Assembly (NCBI GenBank): GCA_964565195.1
Contig: CAZMCQ010000003.1
Location: forward strand, 24,080-88,079
Length of the DNA: 64,000 bases
DNA from: an uncultured Candidatus Saccharibacteria bacterium
GTDB lineage: Bacteria > Patescibacteriota > Doudnabacteria > UBA920 > 2-01-FULL-46-14
Reading direction: 5' to 3'
The notes below the pieces were generated by a model, which was given only the letters and a program-made list of their open reading frames with translations, was not told the DNA's origin and ran no database searches. Position 1 is the stretch's first letter. Every line of letters begins with the position of its first letter. Shown one piece after another: positions 4,306 through 62,769 of this stretch. The translations under genes were made by a program, and so were the position numbers.

Positions 4306-5202
4306 ATGGCATCCACTAAAGAAATCAGAAGAAGAATAAGATCAATCCGTAGCACCCGGCAAATTACGAAGGCCATGGAGCTGGTTTCTGCGGCGAAGAT
4401 GCGTCGCGCGCAGCAGCAGGCGCTCTCCTCGCGGACCTATGCGCGCCTCGTCTGGGAACTGGTTTCCAATCTCATGCCGCAGACTCATCCGGAGCTCCAT
4501 CGTCTTTTGCGGGAGCCGCAGAATGGAAGGAAAACCGCGATTATCCTGATGGCTTCGAACCGCGGCCTCATTGGCGCGTTCAATAATAACATTACTGCCA
4601 AAGGGTTTGACTACGCTAAAACGCAGAGTGCCGTTGCATTCATCACGCTCGGAAACAAGGGCCGCGAAACAGTCAAAAAAACCTCCGAGGTCGCCGCGGA
4701 TTTTGAGAAACTTGACGCGGCGGCGGATGTTCTGGAAATCCGGCCAGTCGCCAAACTGGTTACCGAAGATTTCATCTCCGGAAAATATGACCGCGTGGTT
4801 GTCGTGTACATGCGATTTGTGAGCACGCTTACGCAGGTGCCGGAAGTTCTGGAATTGCTACCCCTCCCTCAATCCCTCCCACAAGGGGAGGGAAAAGAAG
4901 GATATTCCTCCCCCCTGGGTGGGGGAGGCAAGGTGGGGGGCGAATACCTCTTTGAACCCACCCCTGACGCGGTCCTCGAAACCCTGCTGCCGCGCCTTGT
5001 CGAGATGCAGATTTACCAGGCGCTCCTGGAGACCAACGCTGCCGAGCACTCGGCGCGCATGGTCGCGATGAAGAACGCGTCAGACGCGGCGAGTGATCTG
5101 GTGGATGACTTGACGCTTGAATACAACCAGATCCGGCAGGCAGGCATCACGACCGAGATAAGCGAGATCGTGGCGGGAAGATTAGCACTGCAAGAGAATT
5201 AA
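4306..5202 (+). CDS. atpG: F0F1 ATP synthase subunit gamma carrying an in-frame ~26-aa Gly/Pro-rich insertion
   Basis: N- and C-terminal gamma helices conserved (MASTKEIRRRIRSIRSTRQITKAMELVSAAKMRRAQ; ...EISEIVAGRLALQEN); insert LPQSLPQGEGKEGYSSPLGGGGKVGG encoded by GC-rich palindrome at 4861..4945. Confidence 0.9.
   Translation: MASTKEIRRRIRSIRSTRQITKAMELVSAAKMRRAQQQALSSRTYARLVWELVSNLMPQTHPELHRLLREPQNGRKTAIILMASNRGLIGAFNNNITAKGFDYAKTQSAVAFITLGNKGRETVKKTSEVAADFEKLDAAADVLEIRPVAKLVTEDFISGKYDRVVVVYMRFVSTLTQVPEVLELLPLPQSLPQGEGKEGYSSPLGGGGKVGGEYLFEPTPDAVLETLLPRLVEMQIYQALLETNAAEHSARMVAMKNASDAASDLVDDLTLEYNQIRQAGITTEISEIVAGRLALQEN
4861..4945. repeat. GC-rich palindromic element, family A copy 1, in-frame inside atpG
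   Basis: tccctccc-acaa-ggggaggga and cctcccccc-tgggt-gggggagg hairpins; local GC far above flanks. Confidence 0.7.
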
Positions 5203-5221
5203 GAATTAGGAATCAAGAAGG

Positions 5222-6631
5222 ATGGAAAAGAAAAACATAGGGAAAATAACCCGGATAATCGGGCCAGTCGTGGATGTGGGATTTGAAGGAAAAATTCCGG
5301 CGATCTATAACGCGCTGCATGTGAAGCGGCCGGAGACTCAAGGCTTGGCCGCCGGTACAGGTCGCGGCGATTACATTGTTCTTGAGGTCGCGGCCGCGCT
5401 TGGCGATAACACAGCGCGGACGATTGCCATGGACTCGACAGACGGCTTGGTACGCGGTATGGCCGTGACGGATACGGGCGCGCCGATTTCCGTGCCGGTC
5501 GGCAGAGAGACCCTGGGCCGCGTGTTCAACCTGCTTGGCGAGCCCATTGACGGACAGGAAAAAGTTGCCACAACCAAACGTTATCCCATCCACCGCCCGT
5601 CGCCGGAGTTTACTGCGCAGTCCACGAAGACAGAAATTTTGGAAACTGGCATCAAAGTCATTGACCTCATCGCGCCGATTGTCAAAGGCGGCAAGGTTGG
5701 CCTGTTCGGCGGCGCGGGCGTGGGCAAGACTGTGGTTATTCAGGAGCTCATCAACAATATTGCCAAAGCGCACGGCGGCGTGTCCATGTTTGCGGGCGTC
5801 GGGGAGCGCACCCGGGAGGGCAATGATCTTTATCACGAAATGAAGGAGGCCAAAGTTCTGGATAAACTCGCTATGGTCTTCGGGCAGATGAACGAACCGC
5901 CCGGCGCCCGCGCCAGAGTCGGTCTTTCCGCCCTGTCCATGGCCGAGTACTTCCGCGATGAGGAAAAGCAGGACGTGCTTTTGTTTATTGACAATATTTT
6001 TCGATTCACGCAGGCCGGCTCGGAAGTCTCCGCGCTGCTTGGCCGCATTCCTTCGGCCGTGGGTTACCAGCCCACGCTCTCCACGGAAATGGGCGAGTTG
6101 CAGGAACGCATTACTTCAACGGATAAGGGCTCAATCACCTCTGTGCAGGCAGTATATGTGCCGGCCGACGACCTCACTGATCCGGCGCCGGCCACGACCT
6201 TTGCGCACCTTGATTCGACCGTGGTGCTGGCGCGGTCGCTCGCTGAACTTGGCCTCTATCCGGCCGTGGATCCGCTTGACTCGACCTCGACCATTCTCGA
6301 TCCGAATATAGTGGGTAGAGAGCACTATGAAGTGGCGCGCGGCGTGCAAAAAGTATTGCAGCGGTATAAAGATCTGCAGGACATTATCGCGATTCTCGGG
6401 ATCGAGGAATTATCTGACGAAGACAAACTTACTGTGGCCCGCGCGCGCAAGATCCAGCGCTTCCTCTCACAGCCGTTCTTTGTGGCCGAGGTCTTCACCG
6501 GCAGCAAGGGCCAATACGTCCCGCTGAAGGAAACCGTGCGCGGGTTTAAAGCCATTCTGGCGGGGGAGTATGACTCGATTGCCGAGCAGGAATTTTATAT
6601 GAAAGGGGATATAGGGCAAGTCAGGAAATAG
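5222..6631 (+). CDS. atpD: F0F1 ATP synthase subunit beta
   Basis: Walker [16 protein letters not shown]-like region, 469 aa. Confidence 0.95.
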
Positions 6632-6690
6632 CTTATAGGTGTTAGCTTTTAGGGCTATAAGCTATAACCTATTTCCTATAAGCTAGTTTT
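6632..6690. repeat. TATAAGCT-motif hairpin element, family C copy 1 (atpD-atpC spacer)
   Basis: agcttatag ... ctataagct reverse-complementary arms; related to 42385..42476 and 39455..39492. Confidence 0.4.
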
Positions 6691-7125
6691 ATGGCAAAAA
6701 TGAAACTGAAGATAGCCACCCCCGAGCGTGTCATTTATGAGGCGGACGTAGATGCCGTGTCTTGCCCCACCGAAATGGGTGAGATTACGATTCTGCCCAA
6801 TCATATCCCGCTCGTGGCCAACCTGAAGCCCGGCGAGCTGAAAGTCATGGACAATAGCGAGCCGCGCTACATTTTTGTGGCCGGCGGTTTTGTGGAGGTC
6901 CGGCCCGGCAATGAAGTGATGATTTTGGCTGATGCGGCCGAGCGTGAGGAAGAGATAGATATTGCCCGCGCCGAAGAAGCGCGCAAGCGGGCGCAGAAAC
7001 TTCTTGGTGAGAAGATCCAAAGTGAAGAGGAGTACGCGGCCGTGGCGGCCTCCCTGGAGAAATCTCTCGCCAGGTTGAAAATCTCAAAGCGACGCAAATA
7101 TCGGGACGTAGGAAAAAAAATGTAA
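6691..7125 (+). CDS. atpC: F0F1 ATP synthase subunit epsilon
   Basis: N-terminal beta-sandwich plus C-terminal helical hairpin; end of atp operon. Confidence 0.85.
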   Translation: MAKMKLKIATPERVIYEADVDAVSCPTEMGEITILPNHIPLVANLKPGELKVMDNSEPRYIFVAGGFVEVRPGNEVMILADAAEREEEIDIARAEEARKRAQKLLGEKIQSEEEYAAVAASLEKSLARLKISKRRKYRDVGKKM

Positions 7126-61499: not shown

Positions 61500-61526
61500 G
61501 TAATATAATCTACGATTTAACCTTTC

Positions 61527-61612
61527 CTTGCGAGGGAGGATGCCCCACAAGGGGCTGGAGGGGTAGAAAACCCCTCTCCAACTCTCCCCTCGTCAGGGGA
61601 GAGAGCTATAAG
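61527..61612. repeat. GC-rich palindromic element, family A copy 6 (intergenic; three tandem mini-hairpins)
   Basis: ccccacaagggg; gaggggtagaaaacccctc; ctctcccctcgtcaggggagagag. Confidence 0.65.
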
Positions 61613-61623
61613 GATAATTACTC

Positions 61624-62769
61624 ATGAAGAAGGTTTTGGTGGCAATGTCTGGTGGCGTAGATTCGTCGGTCGCAGCCGCGCTGCTCAAAACGCAGGGGTA
61701 TTTCGTCGCGGGCGCGTACATGAAAAATTTCAGCCCCGAGGCGTGGCAGGGTGTGATTGCCAGCGAGTGCCCCTGGGAGCAGGATGTGGCGGACGCGGAA
61801 GGGGTCTGTAACAAGCTCGGCATCGAGTTTCGGTCATTTAATTTCGAGCGGGAATATAAAGAAAAGGTCATCGAGTATTTTTTCCGCGAGTACGCCGCCG
61901 GCCGCACGCCCAATCCGGACGTGATGTGCAACCGGGAGATCAAATTCGGCCTGTTTCTAAACAAAGCGCTGGAGCTGGAATTTGATTACATCGCGACGGG
62001 ACACTATGCAAGGGTTCGACCTCTCCCCCAACCCCTCCCCAGGCCTGGGGAGGGTGGCCGGAGGTCGGGAGAGGTCGCAGGCTTTGAATTATCGAAAGGT
62101 ATTGATTCCAACAAAGATCAATCCTACTTTCTCTACCAGCTAAATCAGTTCCAACTTTCGCATTCTCTTTTTCCCATTGGCGGATACACCAAGCCGCAGG
62201 TCAGAGCATTGGCTCGCAAATTTGGGCTGCCCAATGCCCAGAAAAAAGACTCGCAGGGGCTGTGCTTTGTGGGACATATTAATCTGGCAGAATTCTTGAA
62301 GCAGCGGATCCCGGAACGGGAAGGGGAGTTGGTCACAACCACCGGCGAAGTGATCGGCACGCACCACGGCGCGGCTTACTATACCATCGGCCAGCGGCAG
62401 GGCCTCGGCGTCGGCGGCGGCGTGCCTTATTATGTCGCACAAAAAGACGTTGCGGCAAACTATGTCATAGTGTCCGAGGGCAAAAAAGACGATCGGCTTT
62501 ATGCAAAAGAAATCCGATTGCGCGACATTCACTGGCTTGTATCAGAAAATGACGGCCGTCCAAATCGTATACAATGCAAAGCGAAGATTCGTTATCACCA
62601 GGAGGACCAGGAGTGCGAGGTCATTTCTCCCCCTGTCCGAGGGGGAGAGCAAGAGGGGGTGGGAGAATTGATCGTGAAATTCACCAACCCCCAGTTCGCC
62701 CGAGCTCCCGGCCAATCAGTCGTGTTTTATGACGGGAGAAAAGTTCTGGGCGGTGGTATAATTCAATAA
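61624..62769 (+). CDS. mnmA: tRNA-specific 2-thiouridylase MnmA with two in-frame family A insertions
   Basis: PP-loop MSGGVDSS, KDQSYFL, catalytic Cys region; insertions RPLPQPLPRPGEGGRRSGEVAG and SPPVRGGEQEGVGE. Confidence 0.85.
   Translation: MKKVLVAMSGGVDSSVAAALLKTQGYFVAGAYMKNFSPEAWQGVIASECPWEQDVADAEGVCNKLGIEFRSFNFEREYKEKVIEYFFREYAAGRTPNPDVMCNREIKFGLFLNKALELEFDYIATGHYARVRPLPQPLPRPGEGGRRSGEVAGFELSKGIDSNKDQSYFLYQLNQFQLSHSLFPIGGYTKPQVRALARKFGLPNAQKKDSQGLCFVGHINLAEFLKQRIPEREGELVTTTGEVIGTHHGAAYYTIGQRQGLGVGGGVPYYVAQKDVAANYVIVSEGKKDDRLYAKEIRLRDIHWLVSENDGRPNRIQCKAKIRYHQEDQECEVISPPVRGGEQEGVGELIVKFTNPQFARAPGQSVVFYDGRKVLGGGIIQ
62017..62075. repeat. GC-rich palindromic element, family A copy 7 (in-frame in mnmA)
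   Basis: cgacctctcccc...cccctcccc-aggcc-tggggaggg...gggagaggtcg nested hairpin. Confidence 0.65.
62618..62665. repeat. GC-rich palindromic element, family A copy 8 (in-frame in mnmA)
   Basis: tctccccct-gtccg-agggggaga plus caagagggggtgggag. Confidence 0.6.

Follow-up and report, generated by a model that had tools for sequence, protein, structure and literature searches.

Related families of short palindromic repeats

Triplex motifs (TMs) are defined by the pattern 5'-CCCTCNCCC N3-6 GGGNGAGGG N3 GGGNGAGGG, which specifies a purine-motif class II triplex (Holder et al. 2015, PMC4666352). They occur as pairs in inverted configuration with no transposase nearby (PMC4666352); the PIT elements were described by Hoyne, Edwards, Viari and Maher (2000). 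The motif is "always located intergenically" in E. coli MG1655, with 23 copies in 4.6 Mb, while the TMECO pattern was identified in 262 proteobacterial genomes and G/C-rich TMs also in cyanobacteria, Neisseria and Pseudomonas (PMC4666352).

The elements described here lie in a window of 64,000 nucleotides, that is, the whole stretch of DNA analysed. They resemble BoxC/PIT/TMECO in their three-stem architecture (pyrimidine stem, 3-6 nt loop, purine stem, 3-nt loop, mirror-image G-rich stem), in having G·G-C and A/T·A-T triads and stems of 8-9 nt, and in being dispersed, multi-copy, transposase-free and frequently arranged as inverted pairs. The stem sequences (CCCCTCCC, CCTCCCCC and TCTCCCCC) are unlike those of E. 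coli (CCCTC(T/G)CCC); strictly speaking, therefore, the window copies do not count as TMECO. Further differences are the host, an uncultured CPR bacterium of the Doudnabacteria, the ~25-fold higher density (125 per Mb as against the E. coli figure), and the location of five of nine loci in-frame within conserved genes.

Rickettsia palindromic elements (RPEs) measure ~100-150 bp, form ten families confined to Rickettsia and encode a conserved peptide each (Ogata et al. 2000, as summarised in PMC10969869). As far as that summary describes them, the RPEs share with the present elements their occurrence as in-frame palindromic repeats in unrelated conserved genes and in spacers, and their translation into extra surface segments that fit the fold. 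In contrast, the present units are 35-95 nt long with pure pyrimidine/purine stems and triplex symmetry, and are found across phyla; judged without alignment, they have no obvious sequence kinship to RPEs. The preliminary description had named RPEs as the only well-known precedent, whereas intragenic ERIC, BOX and Anabaena MITEs are listed in a 2024 review of MITEs (PMC10969869). The RAYT-mobilised REP/BIME sequences (Di Nocera et al. 2013, PMC3733652) are likewise short, GC-rich, imperfect palindromes of high copy number, often paired, in spacers. One end of a REP bears a GTAG or CGTC tag, and REPs are in essence extragenic (PMC3733652). The present copies lack such a tag, their 5' flank being WTT or ACT, and no RAYT gene was seen.

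Mitochondrial GC clusters, the double-hairpin elements of Allomyces and the "byp" elements of Magnusiomyces are short GC-rich hairpin mobile elements found in protein-coding genes. Like the present elements they colonise coding genes of compact genomes, but they differ in host compartment and in element sequence. Byps disrupt the reading frame and the ribosome skips them, whereas the copies in the window keep the frame, and read-through translation is the simplest reading.

GC-rich elements of the window and their triplex symmetry

All eight GC-rich hairpin elements of the preliminary description were located where it had placed them, and a ninth, in the secE-nusG spacer, had been overlooked (Table 1). 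The eight had been regarded as copies of one short element; they are indeed GC-rich hairpins, but the copies are heterogeneous and do not form a uniform element. Some are single units (~35 nt), others are inverted pairs (~85 nt) or nested palindromes of greater length. The coding loci are atpG, the PPDK_N gene, the tail of the VirD4-like gene, and mnmA (twice).

Table 1. Elements and host genes in the window (strand ".", none assigned; R1, covariance model).
Feature	Position	Strand	Composition or match	Remarks
atpG, F1 ATP synthase gamma subunit	4306..5202	+	Pfam PF00231 (ATP-synt), E=1e-84	residues 3-295
Triplex-motif unit in atpG	4861..4894	-	TCCCTCCC-cttgt-GGGAGGGA-ttg-AGGGAGGG	first half of inverted pair; 0 mismatched triads; within AtpG variable loop
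Triplex-motif unit in atpG	4906..4940	+	CCTCCCCC-ctgggt-GGGGGAGG-caa-GGTGGGGG	second half of inverted pair; 0 mismatched triads; R1 27.6 bits, E=1e-5
GC-rich pyrimidine/purine palindrome	12240..12283	.		spacer between pyrD-like gene and rmuC
Palindromic triplex motif	13311..13357	.	two triad-scan matches, 0 mismatches	fills rmuC-NYN spacer; valid on both strands
Stand-alone PPDK_N / PEP-synthase N-domain gene	20032..21000	+	Pfam PF01326, E=2e-100	
Triplex-motif unit in PPDK_N gene	20344..20378	+	CCCCTCCC-ttgag-GGGAGGGG-caa-GGGGAGGG	0 mismatched triads; R1 57.9 bits, E=4e-14
Nested GC-rich palindrome	40478..40540	.		fills secE-nusG spacer; -28.3 kcal/mol
VirD4/TrwB-like coupling ATPase gene	59817..61499	+	Pfam PF10412 and PF02534	synteny conserved in relatives
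Long nested pyrimidine/purine palindrome	61381..61475	.		in-frame in VirD4/TrwB-like variable C-terminal tail; -63.5 kcal/mol, z=-5.1
Hairpin composite	61527..61612	.	strict triplex-motif unit 61570-61605, minus strand	virD4-mnmA spacer
mnmA, tRNA 2-thiouridine synthase	61624..62769	+	Pfam PF03054, PF20259, PF20258	
Nested palindrome in mnmA, site 1	62017..62077	.	triplex-motif unit 62020-62054, minus strand, 1 mismatched triad	after GHYAR
Triplex-motif unit in mnmA, site 2	62625..62660	+	TCTCCCCC-tgtccga-GGGGGAGA-gca-AGAGGGGG	0 mismatched triads

Perfect hairpins (7 bp or longer) in which an arm of C and T only precedes an arm of G and A only form 6-7 clusters in the window, against a mean of 0.46 in dinucleotide shuffles (both strands counted). 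Seven of eight elements had folding energies clearly lower than those of their shuffled versions (z -2.1 to -6.0), and the copy at mnmA site 2 was weaker (z -1.7).

The units, which are found singly, in inverted pairs or within longer palindromes, consist of a stem of 8-9 nt made up of pyrimidines alone, a 3-8 nt loop, the all-purine Watson-Crick complement of the first stem, a 3-nt loop and another G-rich stem. The latter mirrors the purine stem and has G facing G, and either A or T facing A. One DNA strand of this layout can, by prediction, fold into a hairpin with a reverse-Hoogsteen third strand. A triad scan recovered eight strict class II units in the window, seven of them with no mismatched triad, compared with 0.0 in 100 dinucleotide shuffles; it also recovered both of the TMECO copies published for E. 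coli, which lie between hrpB and mrcB. The palindrome upstream of rmuC failed the strict triad rule, its second loop being long and self-pairing. By eye it looks related to the triplex motif, with a triplex-like unit on the minus strand.

The mirror rule was examined in 138 hairpins picked independently of our search pattern. At a match of at least 0.85, the flank was a mirror of the arm in 86 of them and a direct repeat in 39; the figure for swapped-flank controls was 34. The register of the third stem was predicted by that of the purine arm (Fisher p=1e-7, a statistic which ignores relatedness). The purine stem and the third stem, which together make up the G-rich half, could instead act as a G-quadruplex with no triplex third strand: four G-tracts with 1-3-1 loops are supplied by the purine stem and tail in 67 of 79 distinct copies, and Holder et al. 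report similar CD signatures and allow a quadruplex in principle (PMC4666352). This is very improbable, as G-tract-poor variants such as GGAGAGGGG + GGGGGTGAGG or AAGAGGGGG + GGGGGAGTT keep the mirror rule, and the position of the interrupting base follows the arm, a dependence that a quadruplex would not call for.

On sequence criteria the elements thus match the known class of intrastrand triplex motifs (BoxC/PIT/TMECO-like) that is widespread across bacteria. The preliminary description had proposed an independent and undescribed case. The kind of element is known (PMC4666352); the in-frame occupation of essential genes by triplex-motif repeats appears undescribed.

Insertion sites in the host proteins

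Pfam profile matches continue on both sides of every insert, and the reading frame is therefore kept in all five genic copies, as had been proposed; the insert peptides had also been quoted correctly. In the PPDK_N protein FPSLEGRGKGRVKG replaces KAK, for a net gain of 11 residues, and RPLPQPLPRPGEGGRRSGEV and SPPVRGGEQEGVGE are encoded at mnmA sites 1 and 2. The window MnmA is 100% identical to MBI4050078.1 (Candidatus Doudnabacteria). The VirD4-like element, which encodes APSPLPPPTGPGRSVGAGGEGKGGGK, had been thought to replace or extend the C-terminus; it is actually an in-frame insertion within a variable tail, followed by the conserved terminal motif xxPGExxxF. Three syntenic relatives lack this insert and keep the terminal PGExxxF. 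The adjoining virD4-mnmA spacer is just ~25-95 nt in relatives.

When aligned, the palindromes matched insertions relative to orthologues and solved structures; for AtpG and MnmA the inserts correspond to gaps relative to PDB homologues. In the AlphaFold model of MnmA (mean pLDDT 89) they are surface-type, low-confidence coil between beta strands. Site 1, a gap relative to the E. coli MnmA structure 2DER, is coil with a pLDDT of ~63, while site 2 lies in a beta-hairpin turn of the C-terminal barrel, with pLDDT below 50 at residues 342-345.

State reconstruction of the PPDK_N loop among 120 orthologues (at least 70% identity) gave an empty root by parsimony and at least 13 gains or losses; in most of these orthologues the loop reads KLKAKFV, without an insert. 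The hot spots of AtpG and MnmA hold different inserts in different relatives and none in some close ones. Such repeated occupancy of one protein site by different variants could reflect independent insertion or the evolution of one old insertion under a structural constraint. That the Gly/Pro/Glu segments are ancestral low-complexity linkers, the palindromic DNA being incidental, is hardly credible. Loop length at the insert sites does vary in all homologues, and several relatives of 60-70% identity carry peptides of similar appearance there. The linker reading is nevertheless already contradicted by the empty PPDK_N root, by the lack of inserts in the closest relatives (P0124 for AtpG, P0002/P0004 for MnmA) and in solved homologues, and by the same DNA motif in spacers, unrelated genes and other phyla. 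Since the inserts are derived, lie in surface coil, coincide with the palindromes and also occur beyond the window, the analogy drawn with RPEs, as palindromic repeats tolerated in-frame in conserved genes, holds.

Spread of the repeats and possible roles

The elements are not restricted to the window but were also found in relatives and on other metagenome contigs. The repeats have multiplied in this Doudnabacteria lineage and its close relatives, strict units reaching 125/Mb in the window and 194/Mb in six close syntenic relatives, compared with 2.1/Mb in distant genomes (1.44 Mb). In-frame copies on other metagenome contigs lie in genes for CTP synthase (pyrG), glutamate synthase (gltB), a GT2 and a GH28-containing protein. 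The covariance model R1 was built solely from metagenome copies outside the window. The PPDK_N copy of the window is nearly equal to the mnmA copy of one relative (L086).

The elements had been called mobile and selfish. Mobility itself is deduced: the window elements showed no target-site duplication or terminal tag, neither the window nor its flanks contained a transposase, no transposase family was enriched beside 80 metagenome copies, and recent presence/absence polymorphism was not seen. New copies may arise when the elements are copied non-autonomously into permissive hot spots; single-stranded DNA or the repair of breaks induced by triplexes may be involved.

The predicted RNA hairpins are strong, and an action at the RNA level was considered, by which the hairpins would make transcripts more stable or adjust translation. 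The C-rich stem is similar to the anti-Shine-Dalgarno and the G-rich stems a Shine-Dalgarno sequence, so that ribosome binding sites could be sequestered or supplied, or ribosomes paused. The 3' G-rich stem of the rmuC-NYN copy continues into an AGGAG that lies 8 nt upstream of the ATG with which NYN starts, and on contig L091 two paralogous binding-protein genes each have the element a few nt upstream of their start codon. However, both orientations are present within genes, the position relative to genes is inconsistent among 86 copies, Watson-Crick folding of RNA would leave the mirror-image third stem idle, and RNA does not form purine-motif triplexes (PMC4666352). An Rfam search with the element gave no match, which also counts against an RNA role, and we regard one as quite improbable.

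Selection for triplex-forming ability, even within genes, would make the repeats functional DNA structures, which might pause replication or transcription, diversify protein loops as hot spots of recombination or instability, or bind proteins. TMs have been tied to genomic instability, with adaptive value as a speculation (Holder et al., PMC4666352). Between the orthologous atpG copies of the window and of relative L212, three substitutions are coordinated: the pyrimidine stem has C>T, the purine stem the matching G>A, and the third stem a change at the mirror position. Two of these are non-synonymous, and no stem change is uncoordinated. By our own estimate such a triple change has a probability of ~1e-3 under independent mutation, and it is not expected for a purely neutral passenger. 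All 16 units in relatives have 0-1 mismatched triads, with host proteins just 60-75% identical, and the A or T found opposite A in the third stem is allowed in purine-motif triplexes. Against this, the atpG change is one clean orthologous pair and could represent replacement by another family member, and many close orthologues lack inserts with no apparent consequence. Promoter, terminator and in vivo polymerase-blocking activities were not detected when E. coli PIT elements were tested for function, according to the account in PMC4666352. A functional DNA structure is judged unlikely.

The elements are probably G/C-rich intrastrand triplex-motif repeats (called BoxC, then PIT, then TM/TMECO) that multiplied in this lineage and persist in-frame as translated passengers. 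As ~91% of the DNA is coding, insertions would mostly land in genes, and the surviving genic copies would be those that keep the frame in surface loops. The coding share of five in nine loci, set against that ~91%, was counted as selection against coding copies. Survival would be aided by the pure C/T and pure G/A stems, in which a stop codon is impossible in any frame and which would be translated as Pro/Ser/Leu and then Gly/Glu/Arg/Lys, giving flexible hydrophilic loops. Such passengers may be selfish or neutral, as with RPEs. The stop-free property is partial, for loops and linkers can carry stops; the elements have 3-6 open frames of six, as against 3.4 in random 60-nt windows.

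Palindromic elements inserted in frame in conserved genes

All eight GC-rich hairpin elements named in the preliminary description were found at the positions claimed for them, and its list was incomplete in that a ninth copy is present in the secE-nusG region. The result is a dispersed multi-copy repeat with nine loci within 64 kb, built of units of 35-95 nt. Perfect hairpins in which a pure C/T arm of 7 bp or more precedes its pure G/A complement formed 6-7 clusters in the window versus a mean of 0.46 in dinucleotide shuffles. The predicted folds of seven of the eight elements lay well below those of their own shuffles (z -2.1 to -6.0; -18 to -64 kcal/mol), while the site-2 copy of mnmA gave a weaker fold (z -1.7 versus its own shuffles). 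Rfam at the gathering threshold returned tRNAs only, and no match to the elements.

Positions of the elements and of other features (window coordinates unless a locus, L, of a relative or metagenome is named)
Feature	Position	Gene or place	Remarks
Element	4861-4945	atpG (4306-5202)	inverted pair of units, 4861-4940
Element	12240-12283		
Element	13312-13362		inverted pair of units, 13311-13357
Element	20343-20385	PPDK_N gene (20032-21000)	
Element (ninth copy)	40478-40540	fills secE-nusG spacer	nested GC-rich palindrome, CTTTAATTCTCCCC...GGGGAGAAATAAAG with central GC hairpin
Element	61381-61475	VirD4/TrwB-like gene (59817-61499)	
Element	61527-61612		
Element	62017-62075	mnmA (61624-62769), site 1	
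Element	62618-62665	mnmA, site 2	
atpG unit, window	4861-4894	atpG	stems TCCCTCCC / GGGAGGGA / AGGGAGGG
atpG unit, L212	L212 596-630	atpG	stems TCTCTCCC / GGGAGAGA / AGAGAGGG
Second kind of MnmA insert	L085 10001-11230		7-bp stem
Motif within longer intergenic repeat	L119	just downstream of thrS (2411-4360)	GGGGTATCTCG..TTCACT plus motif
Inverted motif copies	L091 263-289 and 5906-5932	few nt upstream of two paralogous periplasmic-binding-protein start codons	
Three tRNA genes in tandem	9263-9501 (-)		
Fourth tRNA gene	14947-15019 (+)		
Stand-alone PPDK_N gene, then several separate PEP-utilizers genes	~20032-27800		
Small toxin-antitoxin-like cluster	~27840-28820 (L211 6069-7047)		YafQ-toxin-like gene (weak match) and PIN_3 gene
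secDF, sigma-70-like, DUF8128, VirD4/TrwB-like ATPase, mnmA	55235-62769		block syntenic in L083, L084 and L085

Based on Pfam matches, the host genes were confirmed as atpG, a stand-alone PPDK_N gene, a VirD4/TrwB-like ATPase gene and mnmA. The five coding loci are in frame and free of stop codons, the Pfam matches span both sides of each insert, and the conserved blocks resume in the same frame. The inserts do not resemble translational bypass elements (byps) or excised intervening sequences, which break the frame or contain stops, since all five coding loci (5/5) are open in frame without a stop. The peptides quoted for the inserts were correct; reading frames and encoded peptides vary between copies.

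The claim that these segments are insertions was borne out by orthologue comparison for PPDK_N, AtpG and MnmA. Most of the 120 PPDK_N orthologues compared (at least 70% identity) have 311 residues and a loop reading ...KLKAKFVAVRSS, and in the window KAK of this loop is replaced by FPSLEGRGKGRVKG, which adds 33 nt net. The neighbour-joining tree of the 120 orthologues has an empty loop at its root and requires 13 or more gains or losses. The AtpG element occupies a variable loop between LLPL and EYLFEP; it is present alike in the nearest homologous protein (P0123) and absent from another that is 76% identical (P0124), and other AtpG relatives carry Pro/Gly/Glu inserts of their own in the same loop. 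Both MnmA inserts stand opposite gaps in E. coli MnmA (2DER) and in two close relatives (P0002 and P0004). The check for surface loops proposed for MnmA was positive, both inserts being coil between beta strands in the AlphaFold model (mean pLDDT 89), with a confidence of pLDDT ~63 at site 1 and <50 at residues 342-345 of site 2. The element in the VirD4-like gene had been described as replacing or extending the C-terminus. It is instead an in-frame insertion within the variable tail; the conserved terminal PGExxxF follows it, and the C-terminus is therefore not replaced. Among VirD4-like proteins this C-terminal motif (xxPGExxxF) is conserved after a variable Pro-rich tail.

At the MnmA hot spots of seven relatives (P0011, P0015, P0020, P0021, P0025, P0028 and P0035; alignment A1) and in the syntenic locus L085, a different kind of insert, unrelated to the first, was seen. 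Its peptides include CEDSDVTSEDEAIPKSNGTASHKLAMTKER, HHCEESAATDDEAISNTKKIASHPLAMTE and SMGLLRSARNDR, and it looks like another palindromic repeat family read in frame.

Triplex-motif architecture and known repeat classes

Each unit consists of a pyrimidine stem, a loop, a complementary purine stem, a second loop and a mirror-register G-rich third stem, so that three facing bases form a triad. Window stems include CCCCTCCC, CCTCCCCC, TCTCCCCC, TCCCTCCC, CTCTCCCC and CCCTCCCC. The pyrimidine stem of 8-9 nt with its complementary G-rich stem, and a third stem whose triads would be G*G-C and either A*A-T or T*A-T, one mismatch at most, agree with a class II purine-motif triplex. As judged here from symmetry and covariation in sequence, the layout is that of a putative intramolecular purine-motif triplex.

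The window was scanned for triads (stem 8 nt, at most one mismatched triad, first loop 3-9 nt, second loop 1-6 nt), revealing eight units, seven of them with no mismatched triad; 100 dinucleotide shuffles gave 0.0. Seven of these eight units have a second loop of 3 nt, and first loops were 5-7 nt in the window and as long as 8 nt in relatives. As a positive control, the scan recovered TMECO copies 1 and 2 between E. coli hrpB and mrcB. Three loci (12240-12283, 40478-40540 and 61381-61475) fail the strict triad rule and are nested palindromes related to the triplex motif.

Metagenome contigs were searched with the hairpin followed by the linker CAAGGG. Among the matches listed, contigs had GC contents of 0.36-0.73, one being Prevotella melaninogenica-like, and the tail segment, which the pattern does not fix, was nearly always G-rich and broken by A or T. 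In 138 hairpins outside the pattern selection, the mirror match of flank to arm was at least 0.85 in 86, versus 39 for the direct-repeat control and 34 for the swapped-flank control. The G-rich (or C-rich) segment beside an arm is thus its mirror image, in which each A stays or becomes T, a rule that held for at least 12 different arm sequences among the 138. Two other views of the tail, as an alternative Watson-Crick partner (a bistable switch) or as the mere outer half of a longer palindrome, were rejected: single units have no partner, and the relation is a mirror and not a direct repeat. A G-rich tail confined to the sense strand was also ruled out, both orientations being found inside genes. 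A covariance model built only from metagenome copies outside the window (R1) gave a score of 57.9 bits (E=4e-14) for the PPDK_N copy and one of 27.6 bits for the second atpG unit. As a family-wide model it is too narrow, picking the CCCCTCCC subfamily and missing other window variants and E. coli TMECO.

The element class itself has been known under successive names, from BoxC through PIT elements (Hoyne et al. 2000) to TMECO and G/C-rich triplex motifs, or TMs (Holder et al. 2015; PMC4666352). As published, the pattern reads 5'-CCCTCNCCC N3-6 GGGNGAGGG N3 GGGNGAGGG, and triplex formation by TMECO was demonstrated by CD, NMR and DMS footprinting (PMC4666352). TMECO is present in 3610 copies across 262 proteobacterial genomes and G/C-rich TMs are abundant in cyanobacteria; transposases have not been linked to TMs, which are associated with genomic instability (PMC4666352). 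By their layout the window elements belong to the BoxC/PIT/G/C-rich TM class. An exact match to the TMECO consensus (CCCTCNCCC...GGGNGAGGG...GGGNGAGGG) is absent from the window stems, which are thus placed in the wider G/C-rich TM class and not in TMECO proper. Inverted pairs are a further likeness, being found in the window, in fmt of the relative L084 and in E. coli MG1655, where two units are so arranged at five sites (PMC4666352). The 23 TMECO copies of MG1655 are, however, all intergenic (PMC4666352), whereas five of the nine loci here lie in ORFs, in frame.

The preliminary description had compared the elements to Rickettsia palindromic elements (RPEs). The likeness stands as far as a palindromic repeat is inserted in frame in conserved genes at structurally permissive sites; it does not extend to identity, since RPEs measure ~100-150 bp, fall in families 1-10, occur in Rickettsia and encode a conserved peptide, while the present elements measure 35-95 nt, occur in Doudnabacteria and encode variable peptides, a distinction drawn from size, host and peptides. 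REPs differ in carrying a conserved GTAG or CGTC tag at one end of the palindrome; no such tag stands at the stem foot in the window, and the 5' flank before the pyrimidine stem is WTT or ACT. No RAYT (Y1 transposase) gene was present among the annotated genes in ~60 kb of this organism, nor, among the matches listed, in the 25 most frequent Pfam families of 128 genes adjoining metagenome copies.

The case had been called undescribed. This does not apply to the class (BoxC/PIT/TM) but does to in-frame TM copies in conserved housekeeping genes, of which there is no description in the literature searched; nothing relevant was found on CPR combined with palindromes or MITEs, and RPEs are still given as the outstanding example in a 2024 MITE review (PMC10969869). 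Two separate literatures are joined here, that of protein-coding palindromes (RPEs) and that of bacterial intrastrand triplex motifs, for which no function is known and whose reported sites in E. coli MG1655 are all intergenic.

Occurrence beyond the window

The palindromes are not confined to this stretch, copies being found in relatives and on metagenome contigs. The window MnmA is identical to MBI4050078.1 (Candidatus Doudnabacteria), and the organism was also assembled as GCA_016198105.1. Elements of the same kind occur in four syntenic relatives (MnmA 60-65% identical) and in the closest relative (sample SRR22387914); across these genomes the host genes are mnmA, fmt, atpG and PPDK_N. The mnmA copy of L086 (TTTTCCCTCCCCTTGAGGGGGAGGGCAAGGGAGGGGTGAAAA) is nearly equal to the window PPDK_N copy, and the inverted pair in fmt of L084 resembles that in the window atpG. 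All 16 units found in close relatives were intragenic (16/16), in a sample biased towards the query genes. The triad scan gave 194 units per Mb in close relatives versus 2.1 per Mb in distant loci. Hairpins were likewise rare across 1.44 Mb of sequence representing 80 genomes further removed. These came from the matches listed in the MnmA search, mostly distant ones, and serve as a negative control for density only.

Internal indels of 6 residues or more between paired syntenic orthologues numbered 34, of which six contained pyrimidine/purine hairpins and ~8 had stems of at least 7 bp. In compact CPR genomes such repeats are thus a visible share of long indels in conserved proteins, which is relevant to annotation, alignment-based CPR phylogeny and structure prediction.

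In-frame occupation extends beyond CPR. Five non-CPR metagenome contigs (L111, L133, L129, L149 and L126; GC 0.45-0.59) carry in-frame copies with the peptide STPLPxREGQGG. CTP synthase and glutamate synthase have two copies each, consecutive in CTP synthase, and the other hosts are a GH43/GH28 protein, a GT2 glycosyltransferase and a large membrane protein. Where the host is CTP synthase, glutamate synthase, the GT2 or the GH28-containing protein, contig GC is 0.48-0.59. On non-CPR contigs the motif showed no fixed placement with respect to adjacent genes; other metagenome copies are the intergenic one of L119 (Prevotella melaninogenica-like) and those of L091.

Neither the window nor its flanks contain a recognised transposase, and enrichment of a transposase family was likewise not seen around 80 metagenome copies (Pfam survey of 128 neighbouring genes, among the matches listed). 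As regards MITEs, which have terminal inverted repeats with a target-site duplication and derive from an autonomous IS, the orthologues compared yielded no filled and empty sites similar enough to mark the ends of an element. The top Pfam family beside motif copies was DUF559 / MTES_1575, a Vsr-like endonuclease (4/128 genes). Four high-GC metagenome contigs (L113, L136, L140 and L163) share a conserved sequence 3' of the motif, and the four genes therefore appear to derive from these related contigs. They are a possible lead to a nuclease partner, or possibly just orthologous loci.

Proposed passenger copies and coordinated triad change in atpG

Architecture, enrichment, derived and recurrent inserts and loop positions are matters of observation; beyond these, the copies are probably translated passengers, tolerated in genes because pure pyrimidine/purine stems cannot encode stops and would translate to Pro/Ser/Leu plus Gly/Glu/Arg/Lys. 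Freedom from stops in all six frames is true of the stems only and fails for whole elements, since stops can lie in the loops; 3-6 of 6 frames are open there, versus 3.4 in random sequence. Only five of the nine loci are coding, versus ~91% coding DNA, which suggests selection against most coding insertions, with survivors at permissive loops.

One clean case is not explained by passenger copies. Between the window and L212, the orthologous atpG units show three coordinated substitutions, one per stem, which leave both without a mismatched triad; two of them are non-synonymous. A mirror repeat cannot be homogenised by copying or recombination, and the change therefore suggests either that triplex symmetry is under selection or that a unit was replaced by another member of the family. 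That selection keeps triplex symmetry even in essential genes, with coordinated triad substitutions overriding the protein-level cost, is in our view rather unlikely. If true, a non-B DNA structure would be a functional feature within coding sequence, for example a programmed pausing or recombination site leading to loop diversity, and CPR comparative metagenomics could give evidence of intrastrand triplexes in living bacteria, which has been missing since 2000. Orthologous coding copies are a natural experiment, as stems in codons must pay a protein-level cost for triad symmetry; an in vivo role of the triplex could therefore be tested by following how triads covary over many genomes. What is new here, in-frame colonisation of CPR housekeeping genes together with triad covariation, is worth following up.

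Other features of the window are listed in the table. A second PPDK_N paralogue was seen in L213, and together with the PPDK_N and PEP-utilizers genes of the window it looks like a split, multi-paralogue PEP-synthase-like locus.
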